Positions 1 through 34,000 of a stretch of 64,000 nt of DNA are shown in pieces; position 1 is the stretch's first letter; the number at the start of each line of letters is the position of its first letter. The notes under the pieces were generated by a model. That model saw nothing but the letters and a program-made list of their open reading frames with translations, was not told the DNA's origin and searched no databases. Source of the stretch: Convolutriloba macropyga (taxonomy: Eukaryota); contig NC_134469.1 in the NCBI RefSeq assembly GCF_964194025.1, positions 1,922,001-1,986,000 on the forward strand, written 5' to 3'. The position numbers were made by a program, and so were the translations under genes.

Positions 1-542
1 CATACAAAATGTTTCTAAATCTCTTTAGAGTTTCAGTTGATATCCGGTCGGTTTGTAATTGCTGATTCAATGTTTTTTCAGCATTATCCAGAGTTTTGTA
101 ACCAACTATTCCCTTTGGGCGGCAATTTTTGCTCAAGTCACTGCTCAAATTTGGTGAGCGCTTCTGAATGCTGGTTGCTTCTCCTTTTGTCGGCGGCGCT
201 GAACCATTGTATTCCACAGCTAGTTTTAGTTTTTCGAAAATCTCTCCAGTTGTCTCCACTGTGGCTCCGTTTGAAGAAAAAAGTTTTGAAGGTTGTGTAC
301 AAGCAAGGAACTGCATAAAGTTTATTTCGTTTTAATATTTCCGTAGAAACGTCAGACACATCAAACAACACATGATAATGGTTAGAGGGTAACAATTCAC
401 AATAGCCGTTTTTAAAATGCATGCAAACAGCGTAATTCCGGGCAAACATTGATGATAGTTTTTCTTCTGCAACAAAACACCTGAAGTTTTTTTGAAATTG
501 TTTATAGTAACCAGGTGAGCGCTCATACATAGCTTCCACCAT
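1..542 (-). pseudogene. Polinton accessory protein with HUH-like motif (NHYHVL ... PCLYTTFK), frameshifted, runs off window
   Basis: ORF 138..542. After a frameshift near 280 it continues as GEIFEKLKLAVEYN...QLQTDRISTETLKRF, collinear with the element-B copies (GEMKNKID.AVKFN...QTQTDFLPTCTIDRF). Confidence 0.7.
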
Positions 543-554
543 TTTCTTTACAAT

Positions 555-899
555 TTACTCTTGATCAGATAATTCGTGTTCGTCGTCTTTTTGCTTTAAC
601 TTTGGTCGTTTTGCCAGGGTTGGTTTAGTTGTTGAATCAATGTAATTTGAATTTTGAGCAGCCGCTCGAATTTTTGGAGTTTTCTTTGACAACTTTTCAA
701 ACTCTTCGAAAGTCAGGGTTATTCTTTGTTGAAGTTCATAGTCATGTTCACCCTTTTTGAATAACTTTAGAAAGATATAATTTCCTGTTCCTTCATATGT
801 TTTGAGCGTGACTCGGATCAAGCGTTTTTCATTCTAAGAAACGTCAAAATGAGCGTCTCCAAACTCGGCGTCTTTTTCAGCTGTAAATGGCATTCGCAT
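555..899 (-). pseudogene. PC4-like (putative ssDNA-binding) small protein, one in-frame stop
   Basis: MRMPFTAEKDAEFGDAHFDVS*NEKRLIRVTLKTYEGTGNYIFLKLFKK...QRITLTFEEFEKL resembles the PC4 pattern (V.V..F.G..Y+.+R.+....K.I.LT.E++..L), followed by a basic KRPK tail. Stop at 834-836. Confidence 0.6.
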
Positions 900-4608: not shown

Positions 4609-7600
4609 ATGCCTCTGCAATGCACAAACTGTCCGGCTCAGTTGTCTGATAGACGAGCACTGAACAGGCATTTGCAAAGGAAGCATGACATTCATCCAAA
4701 CGTGCCCACGTTCAGCTGTTTCAGTTGTTCAGAACAAGTGAAAAGTTTGCCCTCCCTACGCAAACATTCACAGGTTTCCCATCACCAACCTATTCTGAAA
4801 GTGTGTTATGCATGTCGTATGGGCTTTCAGTCAAAGTTTGACTTTGCCCGTCACATAAACAACGAACACGGTATTCCAGTCTACGAAATGGATCCAGTTG
4901 AATCGAGTCCCTCAACGCCAGTTGTGAGCTCAATCAAGGGGGGCATCAACTACTATAAACTTCATCCTACCAGTAACGATCTAGACATCATGGAATATTT
5001 GTTCAGAAAACGAAACGAGATTGAAGAAATTATCAGAAAACACACCAATCAGTACCCTCAAAAAATGCAACTGATGGTTGGGATGACCCTTCAAAAACCT
5101 GGAGAAGAAAAACCAGAAAAAGGCAGCGTCTACTTCAACACGAATACAACAACGGTATACTACACAGGTATAACTGATACCGTTTTTGAGGAACTAGTGG
5201 ACAACATAGTTTCGAAGCTGGTTTCTTTTTCAAGCTATGGAAGCAGATGGCAGCTGCAGAGAATTGACGAAATCACGATCAATATGCGTTATATTCCAGT
5301 GAGGGGAGCAGCTTCATACCATTTCCGGATAGCCATCCATTGAGGAGAGCCTCCAATCTCCCTGAACGTACACAACGCAAATGATGACAAGTGCTTTCTG
5401 TGCTGATTCAATGCTGGGTATCATCTTGTCTACTTGAAAGAGAAGTTGGAACCGCCTAGACCCTGCTTCAGACCCAGAACAATTATTTTGACATATAGCA
5501 GCGAGAAACTTTCAGCAAAGCAACCGATTGGTGAATTTGATATGCCGATGAGCCTGTTGGACATTTCGAAGTTCGAGGATTTAAACGAAGTTCAGGTCAA
5601 CGTTTTCAGGTAACCCCACTTCTTTGCAATAATTATCCAAAAATTCACACAAAAAACTTTCTTAAAAAAAGAACCAGCTAATGAAATTAATTGATGTAAA
5701 AAAATAAAAAAAGCCGTGTTCATTAACTAAAGCTCTCCAAAACAATTGTTTTTAGGTATGAGTCAAAACAGCTGCTGCCTTTGAGACTCTCCGCTGGAAA
5801 AAATTATCCGTTTCTTCTTGACTTACTTCTACTCAGCAATGGAGAAACCTACCATTATGTTTTGATAGTAAACTTGCACAAACTCATCTCAAAAATTAGT
5901 GGAAAAGAATATCGTGAACGAAGTTATCAGTGTCGAAACTGTTTCCACATTTGTTCTTCCATTGAATACTTCAACACACATCAGCAAAAATGTCTCGAAC
6001 AAGATTCGCTACAAATAACTATGCCTAGTTTAACGAAAAACAAAGTGACATTCAAAAATTTTGCTGCGAGGTTGTTTTCACCCTTTGTGATTTACTTGGA
6101 CCTTGAATCACTAATAGTTCCAGTAGCAACAGTGAAAAATCATCCAAATGTCTCCAGTACTCATGCTTTAGAAAAACATCTACCATGCAGTTATTACTTA
6201 ATGGTCATAGAGCGAGGAAACCCTGAACCCATACACTTTGACATCTATACAGGTCCTGACTGCATGGAGGGATTTTTGTCCAAGATCGAGAAGCTAGCAA
6301 AAATCATTTATCATTAAAAGAGGAAGTATCCGATCTTCATTGGAACACCACCTTCAAAAACATTTCATACATGTTGTTGGATTTGCGATGTTCCCTTTGA
6401 AACTGATGATGAAAAAGTTCTGGATCATTGCCACATTCGGGGACAATTTCTGGGTTATGCTCACAATGAGTGTAACTTGAAGGGCAGAACACTTGATTAT
6501 ACGCCAGTTATTGCTTATAATATGATGAACTATGATCTTCATCACATTGTTAAAACCCTTCATTCCTCAACAGCAAATATAAAGATTGAAGTGATACCCA
6601 CGAACGATTCAAAGTTCATTGCTTTGAACTATGGTGTATGAATTGAGTCTAGAAGGCGAAAACGAGACGAGGTTGCTATCTATGAGTATTTACGATTCAT
6701 TGACAGTTTCAAATTCATGCCCAGCAGCCTGAGTAAATTAGTACAGACTCTGCCACATGACAAATTCACAATCTTGGATAACTTTTATCGTGGATATAGT
6801 CATGAACAACGTGAGCTGCTAAAACACAAAGGAAACTTTCCCTACTCTTATATAGATGGTTTTGACAAATTAAACGACCTCGAACTTCCTGGTATACGAC
6901 ACTGGAAAAACAGCCTGAAGGATAACAGCATCGACATAACATATGCGGACCTTGATCAGCTGAAAAAAGTTTTCAGAGAATTCAATTGTGAGAACCTAAT
7001 GCAATTTCTAGAGCTGTACCTCACTGGAGACGTTCTGCAACTGGCATGTTGCTTTGAAGTGTTGAGGTCTGTATGCTATAAAACATACTCGCTTGACTGT
7101 GCGCATTTTTACACCGCCTCAAATCTCTCAGGCAGCGCATGTCTAAAAGTTTGCCAACCACAACTTGAACTTTGACTGACCGCGAGCTGCTTGATATGAC
7201 TGAAAAAATGATCTGTGGTGGGGTAGCATCAGTATTCAGCTCAAGGCTAGAGAGTGCTAACAGTCCTTCACTGCCCAACTATGATGTGTCAAAAGAACTG
7301 GCATCGATCATTTATATCGATGCAAATAATCTTTATGGCGGGGTTATGTTCAATTATCCACTACTGATTATCCACGCTGAGAAAGCGTTCGAGTTGGTAA
7401 CCGAACTAACTCTTGACGAAATTCTCCAAACGGACGATAATGGAGAGATTGGGTTTGTTGTTGAAGTGGACCTGGAATATCCGGATGCGATTGATGAGAA
7501 GCATTCGGATTTCCCAATCATTTCTGACAAACAACCAATTGACCCGTTGGAGCTCAGTGAGTACCAGACCCAAATGAAAAACGCACTGAAGGTTTCAGCA

Positions 7601-8953
7601 ACAAAAACAAATAAACTCAGACAAACATTTCATCCTAAGTCTCATTACGTTACCCATTTCAGAAACCTGAAATTCTTTGTTGAACAAGGAATCATAGTAA
7701 CAAAGATTCATAAAGCTATCAAGTTCCAACAATCAAAGTGGTTATCAAGTTATGTTGAATTAAATACCCAAAGGCGACAAGAAGCAACATCAAAACTTGA
7801 CCAGGATTTCTTCAAGCTAATGACGAATTCGACATTTGGTAAACTTTGTGAAAGTTTAAGGAATCGAGTTACTGTAACTTTTGTCCGCTCTGAAGACGAA
7901 CTTTCAAAAGCTACATCTGAAGGTGTCATTAGCACTATAAAAGTTATTGACGAAAATCTGTCGCTCATTACCAAAAAGAAACAGAACATAATGTGGAACA
8001 AGCCTACCATAGTGGGCGCATGTATTTTGGAACTGTTCAAACTTTTCATGATGGACTTTCATTTTAATGTGATGAAAAAAGAAACATCATGCCATCTTTT
8101 ATACTCTGACATGGACAGTTTTATCTACAAAGTACAACCGGTTAACTTTTACGATGATCTATCAAAAAACCCAAACCTAATTGCACACATTGATCTCTCT
8201 AATCTCGCAAAAAACCACCCCCTATATGATCAATCTAATGAAAAAGTGGTGCTAAAGTTTAAGGATGAATTAGCTGGGGCACCAATTGAAGAGTTCTGCG
8301 CAATCAAACCCAAACTTTATTCTTTAATTGCTGGCGGTTTCGAAAAAATGTCTGCTAAGGGCACCAAGAAATTTGCCCAGTCAAAAGTCCACCATGAGCT
8401 GTTCAAAAAAACCCTCGAAACCGGTGAACTTGTCAGACTAGAAAATGTAAAGATTGCTTCGACAAAACATCAACTAGAAACTGTATGTGTGAACAAAATT
8501 GCCTTAAGTGCGTACGACGATAAGAGATACATAAATGCTGACCGGAAAACAACATTGCATTTTGGATAGTACATTTCAAAGAAAATATGTGATGAGCCCG
8601 ATTGGGGAATCGAATCAGATGAGGATATTAACGTCTTCAATTTATACGACGATGGGGAAGCGTCTGGATGGGGAACCCCTGATCCCGGTTTCAACCAGCG
8701 CACCTATTCAAACGAGGAATTTGAAGACGTTGTTGAAATAACTAACCTCACTGAAGTGAGCGATGAGTCTGACCATGAGACTCCCAATAACCCCTTTATT
8801 TTGACAGAAGCTGAAGAAGGCGAGAGAGCTGACACTGGTCCCTCTACCAGCGACGATTACACGCCTTTGTTAGTAATCAAACAGAGAAAAAAGAAAATCA
8901 AAAGAAGAGAGGAGAGCAAAAAAATTTACCCAGCACTAGTCGACCATAAATAA
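4609..8953 (+). pseudogene. Protein-primed family B DNA polymerase (pPolB) of Polinton, disrupted, one intron
   Basis: Motifs in order: three N-terminal C2H2 fingers; DDKCFL...YHYVLI (OTU-like); exonuclease IYLDLES; EndoVII-like CWIC...DHCH...HNECN (~6375-6480); FIDSFKFM; KGNFPYSY; YIDANNLYG; KLMTNSTFGK; YSDMDSF; KPKLY; AKG; DDKRY; in-frame acidic tail after the stop at 8567. Frameshifts near 5306, 5360 and 7172, plus several stops. Confidence 0.95.
5610..5755 (+). other. Spliceosomal GT-AG intron (146 bp, phase 2) in pPolB
   Basis: Donor TTCAG|GTAACC, branch-like TAACTAA, acceptor TGTTTTTAG|G. Removal gives contiguous FEDLNEVQVNVF-R-YESKQLLPLRLS, matching the conserved pPolB pattern FE..N...INVF.YE...YPLR.S. 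Confidence 0.85.
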
Positions 8954-9309
8954 TTGAGGAGGAAGAAGTTCAAAGTAATAGAGACTCCCCAGTTATTTCT
9001 ACTAAACGCCAACGTTTTGTTATTTATGATTCTGACTCCGTTTAAATAATACTGCTGCTTTGTATAGTTTAATTAGTACATCTTCAAAAGAAAAGAAAGT
9101 TCAAAATATGCAAAGTAAAGTGTTGGGAAACTGTTTTCTTCAATTCAAAAGTTAAAAAAGGAAACGTACTTTAGAATCTCTGTACCGTTTTCCTCCTGAA
9201 GAGGCTTCCCACCTTGTCACCCAAGCACTTGTTTTTTAAATGAAGCTTTTCCAATTTAAGTTTATAATAAAAGACCTCCTTACAAAAAGGACAAGTTTGA
9301 TCGGGAACT

Positions 9310-10171: not shown

Positions 10172-10234
10172 CTTGTAGGGGGGGTGTCCGAACACCCCCC
10201 CCCCTACAAGCACTAGGCAAATTAGTGTACTACT
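10172..10234. repeat. Polinton A terminus with GC-rich subterminal hairpin
   Basis: CTTGTAG(G)nTGT-CCGA-ACA(C)nTACAAG at 10172-10210, then the ACTACT end at 10229-10234. Confidence 0.85.
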
Positions 10235-10289
10235 AACGGATATGATAACAGTGCCAATAAATGAACCGGTGGACCAGCTAATCAATATA

Positions 10290-15548: not shown

Positions 15549-17280
15549 ATTAGTATACTAATATACACGTATTGTCACGGGAGGGCACGACTCGTGCATA
15601 AAGTTCACACGAAGGGCACGAAGTCCCCACCCGTGACGATTCGTGCATATCGTTTTGTCACAGGAGAGGACGTCCCACCCCGTTACGAATCGTGCGGTGC
15701 GTTTCGGCGGTAAGGAAAAAACTTACAAAATCTTTCAAAAATTTTGTGACTTTTTAAAAATTCTGAATACTTTTTCTGGTCTAATAAGACTAATGAGGGA
15801 CTGACAATCAAAAGTGATTAATCTGATGGAATACTAAGGTAAAGGTTGAAACGATAGTTTAAATTTGATAAGCTTTCCTTCCAATGTAACAAATCTAATA
15901 GTTTTGCGAGTCTAAGAGCGCAAAATTGGTATTATTATAATGGGTTTTATTGCCCATATGTTCGGATTAACAAGTAGGTCCCAAGTATTCAAATTGAACG
16001 AAGGACGAATTTCAAACTTGGAGAGAAGTTTCAAGTAATGCTTCCAACTGAATAAAGCGCATGAGAATGAATGGAGGACAAAAAATCGTGAAAAGTGACT
16101 GAAAAAATGAAAAACTTGGGGTTTAAAATTTGTCTGAAAATTGGTTAAGAAAGCGTTAACTTAAGCGTTAAAAACTGTTTGAATAGAGTGCTTGAGTTGT
16201 TTTTGTTGTGTCAATTTGCGCAAAAACAGACCAAATGTGGGAAAAAATTGCAAAACTTTGTGGTTTTTGATGATAAAAATTTAAAAAGAATGTTCCAACG
16301 CCAATAAGAAGTTTAATAGATTTAAAAACATCTAATGATATGGTAGGTAGGTAGGTTAAATAATGTTGAGGAATCGGATGTATATTAAATGTTTTTACTA
16401 ATTTTGCCTTCTTTTTTCGATTTAAAAAGGGCTAAAAGATGCAAAATTGATTATCTTCGAGGAAATAAAGTGGAATAAAACAATTTTTGCCAGTTAAAAT
16501 GGAGTCGACTAGTAATTTTTTTTGTTTTTAGTTGAAATTTTGTTCAAACAAATAACAATGAGTAATTGGGTGTTATTTTCATGTTACTTTTTGTTAATTT
16601 TTGGTCAAATCTTTGCGTATTTTGATAAAAAGTGAAAAATTGTTGTTTCTCGGAGTAAGAATATGAATTAAAGTAATTTTTAGTAGTTGAAACACAGTTT
16701 TTAAGAAAGTATGTCATTTAACAGCTTGATGAAGCAAATAAAAGTGACTAACTGGGTGTTGAATGTACGTTATCTTTTGTTAATTTCTGTTTTAGTTAAA
16801 AAGTCAAAACTTTGGGGACCAAAAGTTTTAAAAAATAGTCTACTGAAATTGAAGCTTTCAAATCGAAAAATTTTTTGTGTAAAATTTCGTAATGATTTTT
16901 TGTGTTGAAATTGTGAATGAAAGGTATCAAGGAATAGGAACAAAAAAGCAAGTTTTTAGCAATTTTGCAGGCCGTTAACACAATTATTTTGCTGTAAACA
17001 TTTCTTTGAAATGTTCATGTATGACGTCATTATATGGTTTAAAAAACCTCGGGTGGGGCCCCATAAATGTTGGTTAGGTTCGAGTTTGTGTTCCAGTTTT
17101 AGCATATCTGTGCAATCGAAAACATAAAACTGAGTTTTAGAAGTCCTCATAACTAATTTTATTGGTATTGCATTTTCTTTTCAATTCAAATCGAAGTTAG
17201 TGGCATTTTGTAAATTTTGCATACGGCTTATTGATACAACTTAAAGAGTGTTTTGCCCAATGGAAATTTGTGACTGAAAC
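15549..17280 (+). repeat. Left TIR of Polinton B (~1.7 kb)
   Basis: Collinear inverted matches to 38820-40099 and 34370-35610, e.g. TGTATGACGTCATTATATGG vs CCATATAGTGACGTCATACA and TTGTTCAAACAAATAA vs TTATTTGTTTGAACAA. Confidence 0.85.
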
Positions 17281-17470
17281 TTTTTTCCTTTTAAGATAAT
17301 AGAGACTTCTAACACGAAAAAATTGAAGTTCTTTTTTCCTAGAGTTAAGTACTAGAAATAAACTAAGTTGTTTGGAAATTAAATTATGAAGTGGACTAAA
17401 CTTTAAAGTCAACCTTACAGAAGAAAATCTCACACACAACAAACTCAATCAACAAAGGAAGAGGTTTGAG

Positions 17471-18045
17471 TTAGTTTTCCTTCTTGAGATCGGTTTTTCG
17501 TTTTTTCGGTGCAAAGCACGTGCTTACGGTTGGAGTCGCACGGCTCTCGCTACACGAAAAATCAACTGATTTGTTGTTAGGTGTACATGCGATTTTGTCA
17601 GTGCCCAAGGCAAGTGTTGGTGTTTCGCTAAACGTTTCTGGGCTATCAATATCTGATTTCATTTTCAAAATGCTTTTGAACACTTCAAGGTCTCTCCAGT
17701 GGCGTTCATGATTTTCGTACAGTGGGACTTCTTTTACATCATAATTGTAAAAAATTGTTGTAATTGGTTGTCTAATGTGTCCGGGTCAAATTCAAACTCT
17801 CTGGCATAAGACGTCACAAAATCCAGCAAGTATTGTGCCTGATTCATGAGGCCTTTCTCAAATCAAAAGAAATGAATGAATTCAAAAACCACAAAAGACG
17901 CAGCAATGTGATTTAGTGTGACCCGCTCATCTATCTGATACTCTTGCTGTACAATAACAACATTCTGTTTTTTGTACGTGTCATAGGCAATAGTTCTGCT
18001 GTCAGGGGTTGATTCAGCCTTTCGAATGATTGCTAGAGGAGACAT
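17471..18045 (-). pseudogene. Orphan Polinton protein, homolog of 1575-2294
   Basis: ESTPDSRTIAYDTYKKQNVVIVQQ vs ESEGSWERKIAYQTFYENFIVLIQQ; YNYDVKEVPLYENH vs YKYYCDTVPFFENQ; both end with APKKRK. One stop (17863) and one frameshift (~17750). Confidence 0.65.
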
Positions 18046-20549
18046 TAGAAGTAATTTGTTTGGCTGTAGCAGAATTTTGGTAAAACAATATAAAAAAGAA
18101 TCTGTAGCTAAACTCGTGTAACAGTTTTGGTAACCACTACATGGAGTGGCTCAAAAAAATTGCAGCCAAAATTAGGAAAATGAGAAATCAGTTATAGATT
18201 TTTTAAGTCGTGTTTATTCAATTCGATCCGTTTGTGTTGTAAAAAGGTCACCTAAATAACTGCTACAAAAAGTTTTATTACCCCCCTTTCCTTGTATTCT
18301 GAGTGATCTCAGAATAGTAATCTTTTCCAATTTTTTTGCTAGCTGCGTTGCGTGAGCACACGCAGTTTTATTACTTTCTTATCTAGAGTAATTAATCAAT
18401 AAAGTATGATTTATAAATACCTAACAGCATTAATATGAAGAACTCTATGTAGGTCAAATTTTGTTTGAAGCTTTATGCCTTGTTTAAATCTTAGTTTGAA
18501 CGTGTGTTCTCGCAATTAGTTCCATTTTCATGTCGGACCGATTTACATCAACAGTAATCTCACACAAAGTTTTATTACACTGGTGTTTATTAAGCTTTTG
18601 AACAAAATGTGAATTCAGTTCACATATGTCTGCTGTTCCGTCTGCATTCTACTAGAAAGCATTTAAAACTCTCCTATCATCAATAAGAAACAATCTAACG
18701 CATTTTTCGCTTTCTGTGTAGACGTATTTGAGTTTTGGTTGTGTGTATATGTGCAGATACTAGAGGGCTGGATAAGACTAGACTAGCCCTTGCTGGGAGC
18801 TTTTGTTTATGGCTTTTCTTATTATGAAAGGGTTTTAAAGGGTTTTAATCATGTATGAACAAAATTAAGTACATGCTTCTTAAATCAACTTTCATTTTTT
18901 CTGTTGCTAATGAACTGGTTAAACCGACAAAATTAAAAATAACCACCTTTCTGATATTTCCAATGATTTTATTATGCAGCCAAACTAGTGAAAGGAAGGT
19001 ATCTGTCTCAGAAAACCGATTGTATGCAGAAACAATTTGCACAAAGTCCACACAATTAATTTGTCCGTTTCGCCAAAATACCCAAACAACATTGTAAGGT
19101 TAATTTATTTTCTGGCTAAGTGTAAATATTTTAGTGAAGTTGAACGGTTTGATTTTGAAATAAAGCTAAAAGTAAGGCCTATAGTGGTATTATTGGTATA
19201 GATAATTTTTCAGTAGATAAAAACTAAACGTTCTACGTTTGCACGCTTTTTTGTATGAGGAAGTTGGATTCATATAAGAAATATATAACCAGGAAGTTAT
19301 TTGTTTATGCCTCCGTGGAAAAAGTAGCAACTGTTTTAGTGGGCATTTGTTGGCAATAACATTTTGCCTATATTTAAAAATTTTTCATCCATCTATTTGT
19401 CACCTATTAGAACGCTGAGCATTCAAACAGTTGTGTGAGACGGTGAAGGATTTCGTCACAGAAAAAAAATTATTGTAAAAAAGTTTGGTCCTTGTACTGA
19501 GGAAAACTTCTACTGTGTCATTTTTACAACCAACAAATTATAGCGAGTTAACAGCTCACCAAATGCAATATTTCTGTTGGTTGAGTAGACAGTTGCACGG
19601 TATTGATTAGGACAGAGGAATTTTTCCGTATATTTATCTGAAACAAATAATTCAAAGAGTTGGCTTGCGGAATCCGGGCACAGTATTCTACGCTAAGGGA
19701 GAGTTGATCTTTAATTTTTAGTCAGAGTTGCTTGAATGCTCTATCATTTATCTGAATTCACTTGAGTGTCCTTCGATATCTGTGAACTATTTTACACAAA
19801 AAATTGTCAGAATCAGTCAAAGGCTAATAACAATTTCAACAAACATTGTGCAAAAAAGCATTTTTACTATTTCAACTGGTTAACCAATGAGAGAGGATCT
19901 GACAAAAGTGGAGGCACCCATGTCCCCGAGTCCAGCATTTCGTACCTTGATTACGCATGAAGGCAATCTGAGTCTTTCAATATCCAAAGACGAAACCAAA
20001 TAATCAGGAAACCAGTTTTTACAGACAAAAATTGAAGTGTTGCTGAGTAAAGACGAAATTTGCTCATTCACTCATTTAAGATAAAATATTTCAGTGGAGA
20101 AAGCAGAATGCCAAAACGGCATTCCAGAGTCTGTCCTCCGAAACCCTTACTGATGTTGAACCACCCGATTGGTAAAGAAATAGGCAAAAACGATCCTTCA
20201 CTACCAAAAGGGATTTAATACTTGGTGAAGCAAGAAAGAGTGCACAAAATTGCTCATTGTGTTAAAACTGAGAGACTGTCTGAGTGCTTTATGGTTAATA
20301 TGAAAAACCTCCCAACTGGGTTCGATTGCTATGAGTTGTTTTATGTAATCTGATATCCAATTTATACTTTTTAACAAAATTTTATTTTGTTTTGAGGTGG
20401 AGGGAGTAACAGTTTATCAAGTTGACGCTGTTGTAGAAGATAATTGTTTTGAAAAAAGTGTAGGCAAATCTTCTTGGAAATTTTGTAACCAAACAGAATT
20501 TCCACGGTCAGAGGTTGTATTTTTGTGCAAATGTTTGTTAATTACTGCT

Positions 20550-20710
20550 GGATCTTTTCCGTTTGTGCCCCCCCCAGCTTAGTGGGTGCATATTATTTGC
20601 AACCCGCAGTTGCACGTGCAATATTTTTACATAATGATTTACTATGTAATGACACGTGCTCTGTAACTGGGGGAGCATAACGTACTGGGGGGCACAAACG
20701 GAAAAGATCC
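20550..20710. mobile_element. MITE, 161 bp, Merlin-like (GG termini, 8-bp TSD)
   Basis: TIRs GGATCTTTTCCGTTTGTGCCCCCC / GGGGGGCACAAACGGAAAAGATCC; perfect TSD TTACTGCT at 20542-20549 and 20711-20718. Confidence 0.9.
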
Positions 20711-20833
20711 TTACTGCTAATATCATTTTATTTTTTTAAATTAATCGTGTAAAGACCAAAATTTGGAAGAAACTTCAGTTTGGATATCCATATTGTCAAT
20801 TTTAGTCGGATAGATTTTATGAAATCTAAGACT

Positions 20834-21500
20834 ATGAACAAAATTGAATCTACGCAAGATAGGGCCTTCATGGCTGTTGTAGGGCCATCTGGTTGTGGCA
20901 AAACAGAGTCAATTTTCAAAATGTCGAGGGAAAAAACGTATTAAGCAAAATTTAATAACATTTTTCTCAATACCGGGAAATGCAATAAACATACATTAAA
21001 ATGGAGGAACAACTTGGAGTTATTTTCCAAAAGTATGCCAATTTAGAGTTATTAAAAAAACCTCGAAAACTGTCTTTTGATAAACAACGATTTGTGCGAA
21101 GAAATCTGTATTGACAAAAAATTTGTTAATTGGCCACTGCAGGGCCTCACAAGAACATTTTAGGTAACTCACAATCTTTATCAGCAAAGCAACCGGTCTC
21201 TTACAATAGATTCCAATACAACACACATTATTTTGTTCAAATCAGCCCCTGATATTCAACAAATTGAGTTTTCGGGCAAGTAGTTAAATCTTGTTAAATT
21301 TTTAAAACATTGCTACTAATAAGCAACGAACGAACCGTCTGAGCAACTGCTTTTCGATCTTGATCTAGAATTTCTGATTATTTACGATAATGTTCAAGTA
21401 TTACTCAGTCAGCCTTCCTTCCATCTGACAAAGCACAAAGAACCCCTTTAAACATTGAAAGAGAATAAATTATAAATACTGAAGCAAATGGTGCATTTCA
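20834..21500 (+). pseudogene. Polinton packaging ATPase (A32-like)
   Basis: MNKIESTQDRAFMAVVGPSGCGKT (Walker A); LLINNDLCEEI (decayed Walker B); ATAGPHK; HNLYQQS...IDSNTTHIILFKS.PDIQQI. Multiple stops and frameshifts; absent from the ORF track. Confidence 0.9.
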
Positions 21501-22339
21501 AACAAAAGAGTCAAAGAAACCTTTCCGTATTTGTGACACCGATGTTAAACTGGTTTTGTGTGAATGTCTTCACATTGTGTTACTAGGTCATAATAGAATG
21601 AAAAAAAAGATACTTAGAGAAGTATAGACACAAAATGAATTCTCTCTTAAGAAAATGTCATCAATGGAGAAACCACGAGAAAAAAGAGTTTATTTTGATT
21701 CACAACAATAAGTTTACGAAAAACCAACCGCATTCCTCAAAAACTCTAAATGATACCAGAGTTCAGCATACCGCTGCTCAATTATTTTATTTGAACCATA
21801 TTTGACCAAACAAAAACTCTTACAAAGAGTACCAAGAGATTTTGCAAACAAGGGAAACAAATCGTCCTACTAAGTTGTCAAAATTAATTGCGGACAAATT
21901 TCTTCAAAAATCTAACGCGCTAGCGCCAGCAAAATTTACTAGAACGGAGAAAATAGATTAATCCGTTAAAGCCTTTCAAAAATGATCTTATAGACGAAAA
22001 CAAAAACTTCATTTTTGACGGAACTGCAACAGAAATAAATGTTCCCATTTCTCTCTATGATTTGCAGCAACCAACTGAAAAACTAAATAATCCAGATTTT
22101 TCATAATTTTAGAGGGTTTAAACATAAACGAGGACTTTGAGATCAACGGTGAGGCTATAGTTTTGATCTGGAAAAGAACTCAAAGAATTGCTAAACAACA
22201 AAGAATAAGAAAACTCTTTCGCCAAAAAGGGTCAAGCCTAAGGAAACCATCCAATTACATACAGAGCAATCCCCATACGCCAGAAATGGTTTTGAAACAT
22301 GAAAGGAAGACGGAACTCAGCAAGAGGAGAAAAACTGCG

Positions 22340-23235
22340 AATGAGAAAAAATTGCGTGAATTGAAATATACGAAAGGTCCCTCAGCATACGGAAGCGTAC
22401 AAAATCTACAACAAAGCACGAACTTGAAAACAAGTCTGGTGAAGTTATTTCTAGAGAACAAAAAATGCCCACTCAAAGCGTTGGAAAGTTTGAAAAAGTT
22501 TATAAATAATTGGAATTTATTACCTGCAAAATAGAAGAAATTTGGTTGCTAGACTTGAATTTCGTGGATAACTTAGTAAAAAAGAACAAATATTGGCTCT
22601 CTCTCACGTTATCTGCCTGTCCAAAACTTAACTTCAAAGTACGCCACAACAGCAGCAGATGCCTTCAAGAAATTTTTAAAGATGGAGCAATCTAAAGAGG
22701 TGTGGGTAGATGCTGGTACAGAATATAAGGGCCCCTTCAGCACTCTTTGTCAGAAAAATGAAATTGAAGTTATAAAATTTTTAGCGAGAAAAAATTGGCA
22801 TATGCGGAAAGAAATATGCCATCACTCAAAAATTTGTTATTCAAGTATTTAGAGGACAAGTGGACATACTCGTATAGTAATCAACGGCAGAGCTCTGTGC
22901 AAAACTTTAAGTCTAGAGTCAGCAGGGTAACGACACTGGCGCCAAATAAAGTGACCTAGAAAAACGTTCTTCACTTGATAGCATTAAGTTTAACGTGTCA
23001 TCAGTACTAGTTCAAAGTTTGATGTTGGGGACTTTGTCTGAGTATCAAGAGCAGATCTTCCTTTTAGAAACTGATACCAGCAAACAATTACCAAAAAAGT
23101 TTTTGTAATAAATGATATACCTGCAACAAAAACCCCTAATTATTTTTTCATTGACTCATCTCAGGAACCAGTCCAAGGAAAGTTTAGTGAATTAGAGCTG
23201 GAGGCAACAGTAGTGAAACAACAAAACATTAATTA
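22340..23235 (+). pseudogene. Polinton retroviral-like (DDE) integrase
   Basis: YTKGPSAYGSV; IEEIWLLDL; VWVDAGTEYKG; KLAYAERN; FDVGDFV.VS; PVQGKFSELEL, in order across frameshifts. Confidence 0.9.
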
Positions 23236-23239
23236 ACTC

Positions 23240-23650
23240 AAGGTTCACTTTTTTTCATCAACTTCTCCGAATGTTTTTCCTCAAAACACCGTGTCTTCAT
23301 TAAAACATATTTCAATGAGAAAATTAATCTGGAGGGAGATTGGCGAGTCGCAATAAGTGAAAGTATCTTCCCGGCAAAAAATCAAGGAGCAAAAACAATT
23401 CAAAGATATTTCTTATGAAGACCTCCATTTTCATAAGAAAAATTTTCCATTTTACATTGTCACCAAACTATACGGAAGAGAACGAGGTATCATTGTAACT
23501 GGTTCCTATGGAATCCGTGACCATCTTTTGAGATTCCTAAAAACAGCTGTCTGATGATCTCATTTTGAATTTCAATATGTCAATAGAGTATTATTCCACT
23601 TTTTTGTTTGAAACGAAACAATTACTTTTTTTAGAAAACGAAATTTTAAG
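23240..23650 (+). pseudogene. Polinton minor capsid (penton) protein, N-terminal remnant
   Basis: S.NVFPQNTVSS.KTYFNEKINLEGDWRVAISEVS matches the FP.NT.S.F....I.L.G.W.VA+.E+ penton start and follows the integrase. Confidence 0.75.
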
Positions 23651-24044
23651 TATAGCTGAACACAATCCATCGCAATTATGAATTCGCTATATAGCCAGTC
23701 TGTATCATAACGTCCTCTTTTCGCGTACTGTTCAAAGGCAAAAGCACATCAGCATAACGCTACAAATCTAATTATATATGTTAGCAGGTCTTATTATATA
23801 GGTTAGCAATTATATATGTTAGCACGTGCATTGATTCTTCCTTGGATGAAGCGATGACTTTCGGTTTGGTGGATTGAGCAGACCAATCAATTAGATCTGG
23901 TATATTGCTTACAAATTTAGTAAGCTTGAACTCACCTATATGGAGAAGATGTATCAATTCCTTCGGCCTAATGAGGGCCCTCTCAGGGGATTCTACTGAG
24001 TTTAAGTAATCGTCCTTGTGGAAGTTCTCAAGGACAGCTTTCGC

Positions 24045-24267
24045 CAATTTAAACCAATCCGTTCAAAAAGCCGAATTTTTTGGGCTAAGCGAAATCTTTT
24101 CAGCCATTTTGGAAGCTATTCTTAGTGGAAAATCGACTCTGATATTTCTGAGAAATAATACGTTTATTGCATTTAGATCGGAAAATCTAAGCGAAAGTTT
24201 TGGAGTAATACGCACAAAATTTCTCTAACTAATGATATAATGTATTCCTTTCTTTTACTCGGTAACA
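24045..24267 (-). repeat. Truncated 3' LTR of BEL element (copy 1)
   Basis: Purine-rich GGCCAGAGGA then TGTTACCG at the integrase end; contains AATAAA; breaks into RT sequence at 24044. Confidence 0.65.
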
Positions 24268-26865
24268 TCCTCTGGCCTCGCAGAAGATGTTGGGAGGATT
24301 GGTACAAGCTTAACCAGCGCGCGGACGAGCGATCCGGACGAAGTGCGTACGACGGCGGAGCGAGCGACGCTGTCGGAGCCGTATCGGAGTTCTTCAATCC
24401 GAGCAGTTGGATAGTAGCCCCTAAAGTTGCTTTCTTCAACGATCCAAACTAAGTCACCGAACTTGAGGTGCTGCTCGGCAGGCGTCTGCCACTTAGATCT
24501 ACGGTTCAGAGCAGGTACGTACTCCATGAGCCAACGTGCATGAATTGCATTGGAGTGAGACTGCGCATGAGGGCATGAACTGCTTATGATGATCAAACTC
24601 TGCAACGCCCACGATTGACCGAATTCCTGTTGCTATGTTACCAAGTAGAAAATTATTAGATGTTTTTGAGACTAGGTTGGACGGGTTGGCGCTTACGGGC
24701 GTTAAGTGACGTGCGTTTAGTGCGTATTCAACCAAACAAAAGGTAGTGTTCAACACCTCATCTGTGAGACGACGTGTACCGAGGGTAGTGTACAGTACCC
24801 TCTTAACACTATGGACCAGCCACTCCCAGATGCCACCTTGGTGTGGCGCACTTGGTGGATTGAACCACCACTTCATGCCCTTATGTTCAAATTCGGCGGC
24901 GATGATGATCGTATTCCATTTTTAGATACATTAACGGAGCTCTTTCTCCGCTCCGATAAAGTTCGTATCATTATCCGACGAAATAATAGCGGGCGTACCC
25001 CGACGGGAGAAGAACCACTCCACACCCATTAAACAGGAACTAGTGTCTATGGACGGAACGACTTCAACAAGGACAGCACGAGCAGTCAGACAAGGGAAGA
25101 GAAATCCCCACCTCTTTTCGTATTCCGACGAACGGTGACGTAGAATGAGCCGAAGTAATCAACCCCGATGTTGGTAAAGGCGGGAAATTGATATGCGAGT
25201 CTCTTCTTTGGGAGGTCTGCCATGATCGGTTGAATGGTTGCTGCGCGAAACTTTCTACACAAGACGCAGCTAGATTTGATGGAACGCACTGTGGAACGTA
25301 GTTTAAGGATGACATAACGTTCCGGTACCTTTGACCGTAAGTAATCAATGCCCTGATGATGGTTCTTCAGATGGGTATGCCGCACGAACAGTTTAACAAA
25401 AGTTTGACGCGCATCCAGCACGATAGGATGCTTATTGTCAAAGTCAATTTCCACTAGCAGTCAGAGGCGACCAGAAGAACGGATAAGGCCATGGGGCCCA
25501 ATTAACGGTGTGAACTGAGTAATGCGCCTGCTCCTCTTAACAGATTTGTTGTCAAGAAGATCTTTTTTTCAGTATCAGAGGACTCTCCTTGAACCAAGTA
25601 CTGGAGATGACGCTCGGCTTCGTCAAGCTCAACAAGGACCGCTATGCTGTTGTCTACGTTACGGTAACTTTCATGGGATGGTAAAATACGGAGCATATAT
25701 GCGGTGACCCGAAGTAGTTTTTTATAAGAACAGAACTTATCTAACGGGATTAGATTAATGCTTATTCCTTAAGGGGCTTGGTTACGGATGTGGATAAAGT
25801 TGAGATGGGGTAATCACACTGTTCCTTGGTTACAACGCTGAGCTTGATGTTATCAACGACTTCAGTATTTGCTATGAAAGAGAATTGCTTAGTTCTCAAG
25901 ATGTCAGGAACCCTAACACAGCTACTGAGTTGCAAAAATTCAGCGGACATACCACGCGTGCCAGCATCTGCCGGATTATCACAATTAGCGAAGTGGCTCC
26001 ATTGGTCAACGCTGTTGTTCTTCAGAATTTCACTAACAAGATTTGCAATGAAGATTGGGTATTGATTGGTGGAGTTTATCTTTCCACAAAAATAAATTTT
26101 TCACAGTAACCGTTAATGCTCGACAGGTTTCCCTTTTTAAACGGGCAGCGAGGTGAACAGCTTGCAATTCCAACTTCAGAACTGTCATTGCCTTCATAGG
26201 TGCAACATGGGCCTTGCCCAAGACAAACGCCAGCTCTGTTATAATCTCCCCAGATGTGCAAGTTACCAAAGAAAGCCTACTGCACTGAATATATCATGCG
26301 AGCTATCACCAAACATGTGGATATCGAGACTCTGGAACGTTCCAGAAAAGTAACTTCTTGGTATAGTGATCTTAGCCAACTGCGGCAATTCGACACACCA
26401 GGCAAGGAATCTGTCAAATGTGTCTTTAGCTAACTCGTCATCCCAACTTTGTCCATTGACACGCCAAATGTTTTTCAGGATTAACCGAGCACTAAGGGTA
26501 AACGGTGCGACGAGACCAATTGGGTCGTAGGCCTTTGACACAAGATTTAACACCAATCGCCGTGTTAAGCTTTTCGTGATGGTGTTTTCAGTGCCCTTGC
26601 CAACAACCAGAGTATTGTTGTTCTGATCCCGTTTGAGCCCAAGCACGTGCATTGATTCTTCCTTGGATGAAGCGATGACTTTCGGTTTGGTGGATTGAGC
26701 AGACTAATCAATTAGATCTGGTATATTGCTTACAAATTTAGTAAGCTTGAACTCACCTATATGGAGAAGATGTACCAATTCCTTCGGCCTAATGAGGGCC
26801 CTCTCAGGGGATTCTACTGAGTTTAAGTAATCGTCCATGTAGAAGTTCTCAAGGAGAGCTTTCGC

Positions 26866-27088
26866 CAATTTAAACCAATCCGTTCAAAAAGTCGAATTTT
26901 TTGGGCTAAGCGAACTCTTTTCAGCCATTTTGGAAGTTAATCTTAGTGGAAAATCGACTCTGATATTTCTGAGAAATAATACGTTTATTGCATTTAGATC
27001 GGAAAATCTAAGCGAAAGTTTTGGAGTAATACGCACAAAATTTCTCTAACTAATGATATAATGTATTCCTTTCTTTTAATCGGTAACA
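26866..27088 (-). repeat. Truncated 3' LTR of BEL element (copy 2)
   Basis: Near-identical to 24045-24267, offset by 2821 bp. Confidence 0.65.
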
Positions 27089-30000
27089 CCCTCTGGCCTC
27101 GCAGAAGATGTTGGGAGGATTGGTACAAGCTTAACCAGCGCGCGGACGAGCGATCCGGACGAAGTGCGTACGACGGCGGAGCGAGCGACGCTGTCGGAGC
27201 CGTATCGGAGTTCTTCAATCCGAGCAGTTGGATAGTAGCCCCTAAAGTTGCTTTCTTCAACGATCCAAACTAAGTCACCGAACTTGAGGTGCTGCTCGGC
27301 AGGCGTCTGCCACTTAGATCTACGGTTCAGAGCAGGTACGTACTCCTTGAGCCAACGTGCATGAATTGCATTGGAGTGAGACTGCGCATGAGGGCTTGAA
27401 CTGCTTATGATGATCAAACTCTGCAACGCCCACGATTGACCGAATTCCTGTTGCTATGTTACCAAGTAGAAAATTATTAGGTGTTTTTGAGACTAGGTTG
27501 GACCGGTTGGCGCTTACGGGCGTTAAGTGACGTGCGTTTAGTGCGTATTCAACCAAACAAAAGGTAGTGTTCAACACCTCATCTGTGAGACGACGTGTAC
27601 CGAGGGTAGTGTACAGTACCCTCTTAACACTACGGACCAGCCACTCCCAGATGCCACCTTGGTGTGGCGCACTTGGTGGATTGAACCACCACTTCATGCC
27701 CTTATGGTCCGATTCGGCGGCGATGATAATCGTATTCCATTTTTAGATACATTGACGGAGCTCTTTCTCCGCCCCGATAAAGTTCGTATCATTATCCGAC
27801 CAAATAATAGCGGGCGTACCCCGACGGGAGAAGAACCACACCACACCCATTACACAGGAACTAATGTCTATGGACGGAACGATTTCAACAAGGACAGCAC
27901 GAGCAGTCAGACAAGGGAAGAGAAATCCCCACCTCTTTTCGTATTCCGACGAACGGTGACGTAGAATGAGCCGAAGTAATCAACCCCGATGTTGGTAAAG
28001 GCGGGAAACTGATATGCGAGTCTCTTCTTTGGGAGGTCTGCCATGATCGGTTGAATGGTTGCTGCGCGAAACTTTCTACACAAGACGCAGTTAGATTTGA
28101 TGGAACGCACTGTGGAACGTAGTTTAAGGATGACATAACGTTCCTGTACCTTTGACCGTGAGTAATCAATGCCCTGATGATGGTTCTTCAGATGGGTATG
28201 CCGCACGAACAGTTTAACAAAAGTTTGACGCGCATCCAGCACGATAGGATGCTTATTGTCAAAGTCAATTTCCACTAGCCGTCAGAGGCGACCAGAAGAA
28301 CGGATGGGGCCATGGGGCCCAATAAACGGTGTGAACTGAGTAATGCGCCTGCTCCTCTTAACAGATTTGTTGTCAAGAAGATCTTTTTTTCAGTATTAGA
28401 GGACTCTCCTTGAACCAAGTACTGGAGATGACGCTCGGCTTCGTCAAGCTCAACAAGGACCGCTATGCTGTTGTCTACGTTACGGTAACTTTCATGGGAT
28501 GGTAAAATACGGAGCATATATGCGGTGACCCGAAGTAGTTTTTTATAAGAACAGAACTTATCTAACGGGATTAGATTAATGCTTATTCCTTAAGGGGCTT
28601 GGTTACGGATGTGGATAAAGTTGAGATGGGGTAATCACATTGTTCCTTGGTTACAACGCTGAGCTCGATGTTATCAACGACTTCAGTATTTGCTGTGAAA
28701 GAGAATTGCTTAGTTCTCAAGATGTCAGGAACCCTAACACAGCTACTGAATTGCAAAATTTCAGCGGACATACCACGCGTGCCAGCGTCTGCCGGATTAT
28801 CACAAGTAGCGAAGTGGCTCCATTGTTCAACGCTGTTGTTCTTCAGAATTTCACTAACAAGATTTGCAATGAAGATTGGGTATTTATTGGTGGAGTTTAT
28901 CTTTCCACAAAAATAATTTTTTCACAGTAACCGTTAATGCTCGACAGATTTCCCTTTTTAAACGGGCAGCGAGGTGAACAGCTTGTAATTCCAACTTCAG
29001 AACTGTCATTGCCTTCATAGGTGCAACACGGGCCTTGCCCAAGACAAACGCCAGCTCTGTTATAATCTCCCCAGATGTGCAAGTTACCAAAGAAAGCCTA
29101 CTGCACTGAATATATCATGCGAGCTATCACCAAACATGTGGATATCGAGACTCTGGAACGTTCCAGAAAAGTAACTTCTTGGTATAGTGATCTTAGCCAA
29201 CTGCGGCAATTCGACACACCAGGCAAGGAATCTGTCAAATGTGTCTTTAGCTAACTCGTCATCCCAACTTTGTCCATTGACACGCCAAATGTTTTTCAGG
29301 ATTAACCGAGCACTAAGGGTAAACGGGCGACGAGACCAATTGGGTCGTAGCCCTTTGACACAAGATTTAACACCAATCGCCGTGTTAAGCTTTTCGTGAT
29401 GGTGTTTTCAGTGCCCTTGCCAACAACCAGAGTATTGTTGTTCTGATCCCGTTTGAGCCCAAGCACGTGCATTGATTCTTCCTTGGATGAAGCGATGACT
29501 TTCGGTTTGGTGGATTGAGCAGACCAATCAATTAGATCTGGTATATTGCTTACAAATTTAGTAAGCTTGAACTCACCTATATGGAGAAAATGTACCAATT
29601 CCTTCGGCCTAATGAGGGCCCTCTCGGGGGATTCTACTGAGTCTAAGTATTCGTCCATGTACAAGTTCTCAAGGACAGCTTTCGCAGCTTCTGGACACTC
29701 TTTAGCATTATTACTTGCCATGCGTTGATGGGAGCAGATGGGCGAATTCTTTGCCCCAAAGGTGTGGCGCGTATACTGGTGTATCACAATATTTGATGTG
29801 GGGTCCTCCCGCCTCAAAAAGCGCAATTATGGCTGATCATATGGAAACACTACAACTTGGAGGAACATTTCCTCGATGTCGGCAGATACTGCAAAGGGAT
29901 GTTGTCTGAACCGTAGGAGCACACAGATTAGGTTTTATAGTAAGTCAGGCCCGGTGAGTAATGACTTATTAAGAGATGCGCCATGGAATTTAACTGATTC

Positions 30001-32392
30001 GTTTAGTACCCTACGAACCTTGCCTGGCTTGTTAAGGTTAACAACCGGATGTTTTGGTAGGCACCACTCTCGTTCCGAGCAGCTTTCCATCTTATGAGCA
30101 TCTTTGATCCTTGTCTAACTCCTCTTTGATGGTATTCGGATACTTTTCCCTTAAAAGCTGTTCTTTCGTAAGCCGCTTTTCCATTGATTTTAATTGAACC
30201 AGCGCTGAGAAGTAATTTATGGACAGTTTGATGTTATCTTCAACCCATAGCATTCCGACATCGTACCGTTTTCCAATATGCACCGTGGTATTTTCAAGAA
30301 AATCAAGCGTACGTGCATCCGCGGCAGATCGTGGGTGTACTTGCTTCAGTGCGCCGTACGACTCCATGTCGTACCAAGAGTTCACCTGACTAACGAGTTC
30401 AAAATCCTGCTCCATTTTTGCTCTGAAACAAGTCGAGACTAAACCTGAAGACGACGGTAGAGGGTCGCTCAGAACCCAACCTATAGGCAAGCGAACAGCG
30501 AAAAGCGAGCACTTCTCGACGGCAGCAAAGTACTTTAACGGGCGGATGGACAGTTCAACTAGTTTAGTGTCTAGAACCTCCTCGGTATTTATACCATTTA
30601 TTGTTAGTTTAAAAGCTGTTCCGTGCAAACCAATCTATTTGCAAGATCATTGGACATCCAAGAGTTAATGCAAGCGGTATCGCACAAAACTAAAGCTGTG
30701 GTATCTTTATCCGAAGAGCTCGGCAAATGTAATTCAGTCAGCTGAAGGAGGCCTTTCACAATACTCAAAGATGACAAAGTTGTGGTCTTACTCGATGATT
30801 GGACACTAGAAGGTTTACTTTGACTTGCGCCAGCTTTAGAATTACTGTTCTTGTTGACTGAAGAGGATTTTTTGATGGATAAACCCTCTCAGCTCCATGG
30901 AGAAATGTATTGTGGGAGCTCCTACATCCGTCCTTCCTGCATTTCCTAGGATTTGGGCATTGCACGAACATATGCTTTTCTCTGAAACATGAGAAGCACA
31001 GTTTTGCTTCCGCCACTACCTCTGTTCGCTAAGTGCTAGACTTTTCTTTAAACACCAGACACTCCCAGCAGGTTACGCTTACGCACAATGCAGCGAGGGG
31101 CTAGAGGCGCTGCCGATGTTGAGGTTAGTCTCTGAGTGCCCTTAGTTTGCGTATTAGCAGCGAAAGTTCTTGAGGCAAATTTGGTCTTGACTACTGAGTT
31201 GGTGTTATCCTCAGTTTTTCCCTTTGATGATGTTTGTTTTATTAAATAATGAGCCTTGGTTTTTTGCTTAAACCAGTCAATGATGTCAAGGAGTGTCAGC
31301 TTTACCCAATGCTTTTGTAGCGTGAAAATTGACTAAGACTCGTTCATAGTGGGCGGCAATTTTTGCACTGCCGTGTTAAGGAGCGAGGCGCTCTAAAGGT
31401 GCGAGTCATATGAAAGTGATTTAAAGACCCCAACTAGACTTGAAATATTTTGCAGAATAGTTTATGATGTTATCACTATTGTGCATCTTAAGTGGTGGAA
31501 AAGAGCTGAGTTTGTCTAAGTGTGCACTGACTACAGCCTGGAGTTGGCCAAATTTACGTTCAAATGTCTTAAGTGCATCCTTACAAATTACGCCACAGTA
31601 GGCGAACTCAGCGATGGCGGTTTCTGTTTTTCTAGTTTCAGGAGTTTTTAAGTACGTTAACTTGACATCATAAGTTGAGGAATGTGAGTCTATGGCGCTT
31701 TTATATTGTCCGAGCCATTAATGCCACTGCAGGGGGTCACCATTGTCTCTGACAACTCCCACTTGGGCAGTGGATCTTTCTTCTAACAACTGATTGCATC
31801 TCACAACTGGTTTATCAAATTCGTGGAGTCCAAAGAAGGGGTCGAAAGTGTGGGATGCGGTCGGTCACCACAACACAACAGGTTCGGAAAGTTTGTCCCA
31901 TACGTTGGCGCAATGATCGGAGTGACAAAGGTGGAGGGGCACCTGCGGAAGAACTAAATGGATTCGCTTGCATGAAGTCTGGTGTTACGTAATTTTGGGA
32001 ACCTGCTGATGCTTGTACATGAAAAGAAGAGCTGAGCGCTGTAGGGACCTGAGTGTTGCTTAACGGGGACAGTTGTACGGTGTTTACGATAACAGATGTA
32101 CCTACGAGTGGTACTGCATTATTTGGGACTGATGCACAAAAACGCCAGACTTTTGGATCTGGATGCGCAGGAGCTGCGTGGGTTATGGGTACAAAATTTT
32201 GAGGCTGACACAACTTTTGTGGGGGCGGTGGATGAATAAATTGCGGAGGAAACGAATTGTGCAGGCGGAGAAAGGGGTAACGGTTTGACATTATTCGCTA
32301 CGGGGTTATTGGCGTGTAGTGGGAGTGCTTGTGGCGGCAAAGGAGCAACACTGACTGCTGATGGGATTAACGGTAAATGAGGTCCAGACATT

Positions 32393-32910
32393 TTAATTTT
32401 TGATAAAGGGTTGCTTAGTGGTGTCACTCTGTATATCTCATTTATAAGGTGTACGAATGATTTTATTGTAAATTCCGAGTCAAACAAACAATACAAAGTT
32501 AAAATAATTAAAACTAATCTGTACGTTAAAAAAATGACAGTGGATCATGTTTATAGAGAAATTGAGAAAACTCTAAGAAAAACACCTGCCGCGTATTGCC
32601 ACGAAATTTTCAGCTACAACTGGAATAAGAATTTGGAAGCATGAGTTTATTTTTTTGAAAGAACCAGTGCGACATATGATAATTGCAATGCATCAATCAG
32701 GCATATCTTCGAACTAACCTTTTTCGCTGCCAGAAACTTAATTTGAGCCAAATTGTTGTTCACAAAAATGGTCAACCTACTGTTGGAACTCCGATCTCAA
32801 CAAATTTTAACCACCTTTTATTACAATACTCTGGAAGCTTCTAAATTTAGTGACAAAGGTGGGCAGGGTATAACCCTGGACAGTTATCCTAATCAATCTG
32901 TTGCCCAATT
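32393..32910 (+). pseudogene. Polinton major capsid protein, C-terminal half remnant (copy 1)
   Basis: DKGLLSGVTLYISFIR..NDF...YKVKIIKTNLYVKKMTV...IEKTL.KTPA.Y; EPVRHMIIAM; HKNGQP; YYNTLEA; GITLDSYPN. Confidence 0.85.
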
Positions 32911-32949
32911 TTTTCTTCAAAGACAACAAAAGAACACAAACAATAATTT

Positions 32950-33546
32950 AAAGATTTTGATTCCATATTAAATATTATCAATAATATATTATTGTCAACA
33001 TGAACACAACCCTAACCAGTAATTATTATATTACGTATTTTGGAAATCTTGCCGTACAATCAACCATTATCAACACTACAAAATATATCAATCGTACAAG
33101 TAGGCAAAAAATCAATTTGAGTTTATACACTATTGGTAAAAACACAATCAACGTTAGGTAGTTTCCACTTGGAGTTTGCAAAGCTCGAGAAATAGCGCTA
33201 ATTGTATTTCACGGCTTAGTCAATCCTCTTCTTCACTTCTCCAAAGAAAGCTGTTTTTGTTAAATTAGTTCTAATAAATAGTCTAAAATACGTGAAAAAA
33301 AAACAATGTACACTGAGTGATTTTGGATAGTGTACACTTGAAGGAATCATGAAGTTGGTCGTTGGAGGCAATAACATGATAATGAAATCCTTTACAAAAC
33401 TCATCGTTCATATACAAGTTGTAAGCAAAGTTCTTTGTCACTGTGTGACCAAGGATAGGTTCACTTTGAGATATAAAATAAAGAAAATGTTTGGCATACT
33501 GACGAAAACATTCTGATTCTGGTGTGCGCTCAAACATCGCCTCCAC
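32950..33546 (-). pseudogene. HUH-like (FHYHVI) accessory protein, copy 1
   Basis: EAMFERTP...FHYHVI, homologous to EAMYERSP...NHYHVL at 138-542; frameshifted. Confidence 0.7.
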
Positions 33547-33994: not shown

Positions 33995-34000
33995 AATTTT

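Follow-up and report, generated by a model that had tools for sequence, protein, structure and literature searches.

A Fixed Pair of Genes with Predicted HUH/Rep and PC4/Pur-alpha Folds in Polintons with and without a Polymerase Gene

What do two small, closely linked genes, one predicted to resemble replication-initiator nucleases and the other single-stranded DNA (ssDNA)-binding proteins, do for the Polintons that carry them? In the available text of PMC11131425, the exit of Polintons and the start of their replication are presented as an untested model that involves the integrase and the polymerase only. We analyzed a 64,000-nucleotide stretch of the Convolutriloba macropyga genome (NC_134469.1, positions 1,922,001 to 1,986,000; hereafter the window), which holds two Polintons, elements A and B, each with the gene pair. 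An initial annotation had proposed an undescribed ssDNA-processing module in which a tyrosine of a HUH endonuclease nicks subterminal hairpins for excision or resolution. With two small fixed genes of DNA-handling folds, natural hairpins, and families with and without a polymerase for comparison, the question can be tested with purified proteins.

Element A is a Polinton with AGTAGT/ACTACT ends, terminal inverted repeats, and a 6-bp target-site duplication. Its right end, ACTACT plus the duplication AACGGA, lies at 10229..10240 (+ strand); the duplication was matched at the left end in locus L021, and the element is ∼18.3 kb long. On the minus strand, the PC4/Pur-alpha-fold gene (555..893; 112 aa in natural intact copies) is broken by an in-frame stop at 834-836, and the HUH/Rep-fold gene (1..542; intact natural copies encode about 220 aa) starts with MVEAMYERSP at 542 and shows a frame change near 276. 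The pair had been placed at 1-899 with a gap of ∼10 bp. The genes and the gap (12 nt, 543-554) stand, but the span falls short, because the HUH-like gene continues for ∼120 bases past the left edge of the window. A broken gene at 4609..9039 (+), named as protein-primed DNA polymerase B (pPolB) by its motifs while Pfam gave no match, showed that the element A family has a putative polymerase of its own. In the right terminal inverted repeat, the subterminal hairpin at 10172..10210 (+) was confirmed as a real one (z −3.73; 0 of 200 shuffles). Between the pair and the polymerase gene are a conserved gene of no assigned function, orf246 (1575-2291), which adjoins the PC4-like gene in polymerase-bearing families but lies at the other end in families that lack the polymerase (L138:2204-2653), and, at 2498-3662, a ∼175 bp tandem repeat. 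Elsewhere in the window, 58130-61193 contains non-LTR retrotransposon frames (endonuclease and reverse transcriptase).

Element B (15550..40100, no strand assigned) has decayed; it belongs to a Polinton family that lacks a polymerase and shares 74-84% DNA identity with the elements in L139 and L032. It carries tandem duplications and an insertion at about 23700-32400, which is GC-richer and includes a 2.82-kb tandem unit in three copies. No polymerase match was found in element B at E ≤ 1. Its copies of the pair, all on the minus strand and all broken, follow the same gene order: a HUH-like gene (32950..34000), whose 5′ part is repeated in a 448-bp tandem duplication (33286-33552 and 33734-34000), with a PC4-like gene (34108..34375), then a second copy of the pair (36259..37115) and a third (37913..38723). 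Profile scores (E 1e-8 to 1e-12 for the HUH-like gene; best E 3e-6 for the PC4-like gene) and gene order bear out the proposal that A and B share the same co-oriented pair. Six-frame translation of the window showed the motif EAM[YF]ER[ST]P at four sites (536, 33543, 33991, and 36736), and a fifth, altered copy was seen at 38455. As the initial annotation had noted, the DNA of the two elements has diverged; A versus B, the only common stretch was 32 nt around the start. Element B also has subterminal hairpins of its own, at the left end in 15550..15644 (+; z −5.45) and at the right end in 39950..40094 (+; z −2.7 to −4.4), and these differ in sequence from that of element A. The protease segment is absent between the capsid and HUH-like genes in the element B copies (32400-32900).

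We then followed the pair through the 1.18-Gb genome, where 40 of 389 candidate loci were scored. The order was MCP>protease><HUH-like<PC4-like, in which Pfam identified the protease, and the integrase, ATPase, and capsid proteins were named by motifs and gene order. Both genes were present in 28/28 loci chosen by the cassette itself. In 20 loci chosen instead by the capsid gene, the HUH-like gene lay tail-to-tail with the protease gene in all 20 and was followed by the PC4-like gene in 19. These loci were hand-picked along the 150 matches listed by a capsid-gene search (4,480 candidates); the listed matches were all ≥72% identical to the query, and the sample therefore represents one broad clade. 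Among 20 loci fetched from the candidate search, the 112-aa PC4-like frame was intact in 16, and HUH-like frames of at least 211 aa were found in 7. Between families, dN/dS was 0.13-0.34 where dS could be computed (near saturation for most such pairs) and 0.15-0.17 for the best-measured pairs, a pattern of purifying selection on the gene pair. Within families, values of 0.16-0.92 fit the decay expected after insertion. The pair is a fixed core cassette of this Polinton lineage. A search of 50%-identity representatives gave 272 homologs at E ≤ 0.001, the most distant of them from several databases (JGI/IMG, Logan, NCBI, and ENA); among the viral contigs and metagenome contigs searched, we found no related loci. 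At L050:1456-2523, the PC4-like and HUH-like genes occupy a single 356-codon open frame, a one-copy arrangement that may be a chance read-through.

In the model of the smaller protein, four antiparallel strands lead into a long helix, and the tail is disordered. PC4, Sub1, and Pur-alpha made up the top 8 of 48,161 chains compared with this model (Z 6.5-7.9), and MoSub1 came first in Foldseek (E 0.014), in agreement with the PC4 assignment made at the outset. We therefore describe the protein as having a predicted PC4/Pur-alpha ssDNA-binding fold. It shares four strands and a helix with PC4/Sub1/Pur-alpha proteins (human PC4 6ycs, MoSub1 4bhm, phage T5 4bg7, and Borrelia Pur-alpha 3n8b; Z 6.0-7.9) and differs from them in that Pfam PC4 (PF02229) recognized none of 28 members at E ≤ 1.

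In cells, PC4/Sub1 acts as a transcription cofactor, and polyomavirus large T origin-binding domains also regulate transcription. The pair could accordingly regulate transcription, with the PC4-like protein as a coactivator and its partner as a DNA binder of origin-binding fold on the element's promoters. The large T domains are among the fold matches described below, and the pair forms a transcription unit of its own, opposite the virion genes. We nevertheless consider this improbable, given that the small protein is about as close to Pur-alpha and to the phage T5 replication protein as it is to PC4 and that Pfam PC4 missed all 28 members.

The model of the larger protein (pLDDT 85) has two domains, with the C-terminal one at about residues 163-220. 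Residues 15-108 matched Rep nuclease or viral origin-binding domains: Rep nuclease or polyoma/papilloma origin-binding domains filled 13 of the top 14 rows out of 48,161 chains, Rep/origin-binding domains took the top 31 rows of a second structure comparison, and parvoviral NS1 ranked 2-4 in a viral library. The scores were weak, with a best Z of 4.7, a best rmsd of 3.0-3.5 over 77-79 residues, and a best Foldseek PDB E of 0.13. We reasoned that the case for the fold lies in the consistency of the matches and not in the strength of the scores, and we regard the larger protein as having a predicted Rep/HUH origin-binding fold, as had been proposed. Sequence comparisons were less telling. HHalign against 12 Rep_2 proteins (from 31 loci screened by motif) gave probabilities of 15-37%, with only the HUH strand aligned confidently. 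Pfam gave no family match for either gene; in PHROGs, nothing useful was found, and a single member of 54 matched a replication initiation family (E 0.024); the PDB sequences offered no useful match for the HUH-like protein, and those to MCR-1 were chance (E 0.5). The best ESM Atlas value was 0.85, with no lead at 0.9, and a plasmid tblastn and a PF01719 search of the genome yielded nothing useful.

Might the Rep likeness be a chance resemblance between alpha/beta sandwiches, and the protein an unrelated zinc-binding one? The Z scores below 5, the lack of a family match in Pfam, PHROGs, and the PDB, and the ESM Atlas result speak for chance. However, three fold searches, all with the same model, ranked Rep/origin-binding domains above unrelated sandwiches, and the HYHVL strand and an upstream His line up with Rep_2 proteins. 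We find a chance likeness doubtful on balance and give it little weight.

Next, we examined the residues on which a HUH enzyme would depend. Among 60 diverse natural proteins, H42 (58/60), C48 (58/60), H55 (58/60), H57 (59/60), and C80 (60/60) were almost invariant. The HUH motif lies on strand 56-61 and has Y, F, or W as its middle residue; HYH is kept in the copies of both window elements, and the His pair is conserved as predicted. A profile alignment, itself weak, paired H42 with the SPLH His of Rep_2. This His/Cys set likely binds metal. A deaminase-type PCxxC motif was considered and rejected, as its spacing differs and its second Cys is present in 19 of 54 proteins.

The tyrosine behaved differently from the His pair. 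The initial annotation had drawn attention to LYTTFK in element A and LFTCLK in element B, and both sequences were found, the latter in the copy at 36415-36600; it had also taken the tyrosine of YxxxK as catalytic, and conservation of this residue did not hold up. Position 82 was Tyr in 36, Phe in 17, Leu in 5, and Val in 2 of the 60 proteins, and YxxxK was present in 13 of 54. Other positions had Tyr in 5 (position 87), 42 (position 111), and 46 (position 198) of 60; Y111 was Phe in 13/60, and Y198 was Phe in a 66-member cluster. No column was invariantly Tyr in 21 intact family representatives, and clusters P0036, P0040, and P0056 (91, 65, and 66 member sequences) had no Tyr at 82, 85, 87, or 111. 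Catalytic Rep tyrosines are numbered Y96 and Y106 in the available text of 10.1101/2020.09.01.278671 and Y91 in that of PMC9973303. By range arithmetic rather than superposition, namely from the range ends of the structural matches under an ungapped assumption, the catalytic position maps to 85-89. Natural Rep_2 protein spacing points to position 87, and a weak profile alignment (37%, versus Rep_2) puts the Rep Tyr on Y111 instead. The Tyr at position 82 is thus probably off the catalytic position, about five residues before it.

A canonical HUH endonuclease, whose LYTTFK tyrosine nicks the subterminal hairpin during excision or resolution, would explain the HUH motif, the Rep-like fold, the YxxxK in family A, and the hairpins. 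Yet the tyrosine is not conserved in any register, which leaves a canonical tyrosine nickase without support: intact high-copy families lack Tyr at position 82, and this position is Phe in 17/17 copies of B1, the family of element B. We judge this explanation very improbable. In predicted fold and probable metal site, the protein resembles a HUH domain, but one in which the tyrosine of the tyrosine nickases is not retained. With no conserved Tyr, a binding role is also more likely than nicking in excision or resolution.

To place these residues in context, we compared families with and without a polymerase gene. A polymerase gene lay beyond the PC4-like gene in 6 of 12 loci, where the pair and pPolB coexist, and none was found in the other 6. 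Families A, C, D, E, and F have pPolB, and B1-B3 and element B of the window do not. Coexistence in 6/12 loci rules out the HUH gene as a simple replacement of the polymerase. Among nine polymerase-less elements examined on both sides, both ends were located in seven, at lengths of 12.9-14.1 kb; in the remaining two, the left end lay outside the stretch in one and was not found in the other. A 6-bp target duplication was present in six of these seven, and the terminal repeats, ∼1.4-2 kb long, were 94-99.9% identical. An example is the element at G000:C16:36480117-36494237 (L139, L032, and L127), with six similar ones. No polymerase match was obtained in 12/12 further stretches, and there was no room for the gene between the element ends. 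The polymerase-less elements retain intact integrase, ATPase, both capsid genes, protease, and the gene pair, and dN/dS between two of the polymerase-less families was 0.15-0.17. At least three recent, complete Polinton families thus lack a polymerase gene but have kept all virion genes and the integrase. By sequence, B1-B3 and element B are polymerase-less derivatives; B1-B3 grouped together (support 92) in a quick tree, which we used only for grouping and residue states. In B2 and B3, position 82 was Phe/Leu (4/4) and Tyr (7/7), respectively; position 87 was mostly Leu in the polymerase-less families, and Y39, Y111, Y179, and Y198 were kept in all three. A literature search found no description of polymerase-less Polintons; the available text of PMC11071296 describes related viruses without both PolB and integrase.

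How might these observations be reconciled? The loss of the tyrosine, coexistence with the polymerase, and retention in both kinds of families led us to the reading that the HUH-fold protein binds metal and the element's termini without cutting them and acts with an ssDNA binder in protein-primed replication, and that the polymerase is borrowed where it is absent; we would put its chances at about even. After excision, the HUH-fold protein would recognize the terminal repeat or hairpin of its own family and help to load the terminal protein and the protein-primed polymerase, while the PC4-fold protein would coat the displaced strand. Polymerase-less families would borrow a polymerase from autonomous families and keep their own terminus-specific pair. 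Without a conserved catalytic Tyr, the HUH-fold protein likely binds the termini rather than nicks them. For the pair, we infer metal binding, DNA binding, a role in replication, and trans-complementation. Strict retention of the metal site counts against a non-cutting binder to some extent, as it would also be expected of an active enzyme.

The same retention could point to an active nickase of a non-canonical type: the HUH-fold protein would open the terminal hairpin, after which a host polymerase would copy the element. The nucleophile would then be another Tyr in cis or in trans, a His or Cys, or hydrolysis would take its place, and hairpin opening would free some families from the need for their own polymerase. 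Y39, Y111, Y179, and Y198, kept in B1-B3, leave room for such a nucleophile. The seven complete polymerase-less elements with an intact pair, the low dN/dS between two such families, the near-invariant metal ligands, the hairpins of elements A and B, and the HUH/Rep-like replicases of mriyaviruses, some PLV clusters, and Gulliviroviridae are all consistent with this possibility. However, no Tyr is invariant: Y111, which is Phe in some proteins, is located beyond the final strand aligned in the small-Rep matches, and Y198 lies in the second domain. A longer, helicase-fused form was not found among 7,988 scored candidates, which is weak evidence; the natural frames of about 200-245 aa end before the protease gene, with no fused SF3 helicase. 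Moreover, the pair is equally kept in polymerase families, and autonomous families could supply the polymerase in trans. Our view of a non-canonical nickase is hence tentative; it is unlikely, though a serious contender. A more specific form, in which a Rep-derived HUH protein cuts terminal hairpins without the motif III Tyr and, together with the PC4-fold binder, allowed the polymerase to be dropped in favor of parvovirus-like copying by host enzymes, we regard as rather unlikely. If the protein does cut, its HUH chemistry would be new, as would the replication mode for animal Polintons; if it does not, it would parallel the polyomavirus and papillomavirus origin-binding domains as a further domestication of HUH.

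We compared the pair with known systems. Among the closest are Rep HUH domains (those of the CRESS-virus Reps of FBNYV 6h8o, circovirus 7kii/6wdz, and geminivirus 6we1, of the plasmid pMV158 RepB, Rep_2/PF01719, and of parvoviral NS1), with which the Polinton protein shares the predicted fold of residues 15-108, the HUH strand, and a separate C-terminal domain; with Rep_2 proteins, an upstream His also aligned, in the weak profile alignment, to that of SPLH. Unlike Reps, it lacks a conserved motif III Tyr/Lys and a helicase domain, carries two additional Cys that are near-invariant, has, in the model, no helix between the first two strands, and is encoded by integrase-bearing Polintons. The origin-binding domains of polyomavirus large T and papillomavirus E1 belong to the same fold class (Z 3.4-4.4). 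They are not known to have kept the His pair. They are also fused to an SF3 helicase, whereas the Polinton protein has retained this pair and is a stand-alone protein. In the available text of PMC13595969, these domains are Rep derivatives without nicking; for RepB, the available part of PMC5714925 covers Y99 and the oligomerisation domain.

The elements share with animal Polintons/Mavericks (adintoviruses, Polintoviricetes) the AGTAGT/ACTACT ends, the 6-bp duplication, integrase, ATPase, protease, major and minor capsid proteins, and, in family A and others, pPolB; they differ in the fixed PC4- and HUH-fold cassette and in having at least three recent families without pPolB. The adintovirus maps of PMC8502044 (Suppl. 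Fig. S2) show genes labeled MOSUB, SSDBP, and NS2-like, as well as Adintoc genes without names. The PC4-like adintovirus gene is therefore known by label, and its likeness to the Polinton gene is one of label; the Adintoc or NS2-like genes could be the HUH-fold protein. Hence, of the idea of an undescribed module, the HUH-fold half stands, as such a gene appears unreported in animal Polintons in the literature searched, but a PC4-like gene had already been labeled MOSUB/SSDBP in adintoviruses.

Further afield, the available texts report HUH genes in mriyaviruses (PMC11253617) and some PLV clusters (10.64898/2026.06.19.733378) and Rep-like nickases in Gulliviroviridae (10.64898/2026.10.13.758929). 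According to these sources, mriyaviruses, Zora/VC218 PLVs, and Gulliviroviridae resemble our elements in combining a double jelly-roll capsid with a HUH/Rep-like gene, some also with a retroviral-type integrase or an ssb gene. In contrast to the Polinton pair, they are reported to conserve motif III, mriyaviruses encode helicases, and all are other lineages, mostly of unicellular hosts. In its available text, PMC11296320 mentions HUH only in general, and the available portions of PMC11071308, PMC11131425, PMC4061559, 10.1101/2023.08.22.554363, and 10.1101/2025.02.07.637071 mention neither HUH nor PC4. A literature search for Polinton/Maverick with PC4 returned only an unrelated match, and no published HUH-fold gene in animal Polintons was found in the openly accessible papers searched. 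Within this scope, a core cassette of a predicted Tyr-less HUH fold and a predicted PC4 fold, in Polintons with and without a polymerase, is new.

We also observed Rep genes of a CRESS-type virus in this genome. Tandem arrays with a unit of ∼1.9 kb (L120-L125; G000:C5:7.95-7.96 Mb), and similar arrays at C9:39.88-39.90 Mb, represent an endogenous CRESS-type virus and carry a Rep (HLQ, EYCTK, and P-loop) and a capsid-like frame.
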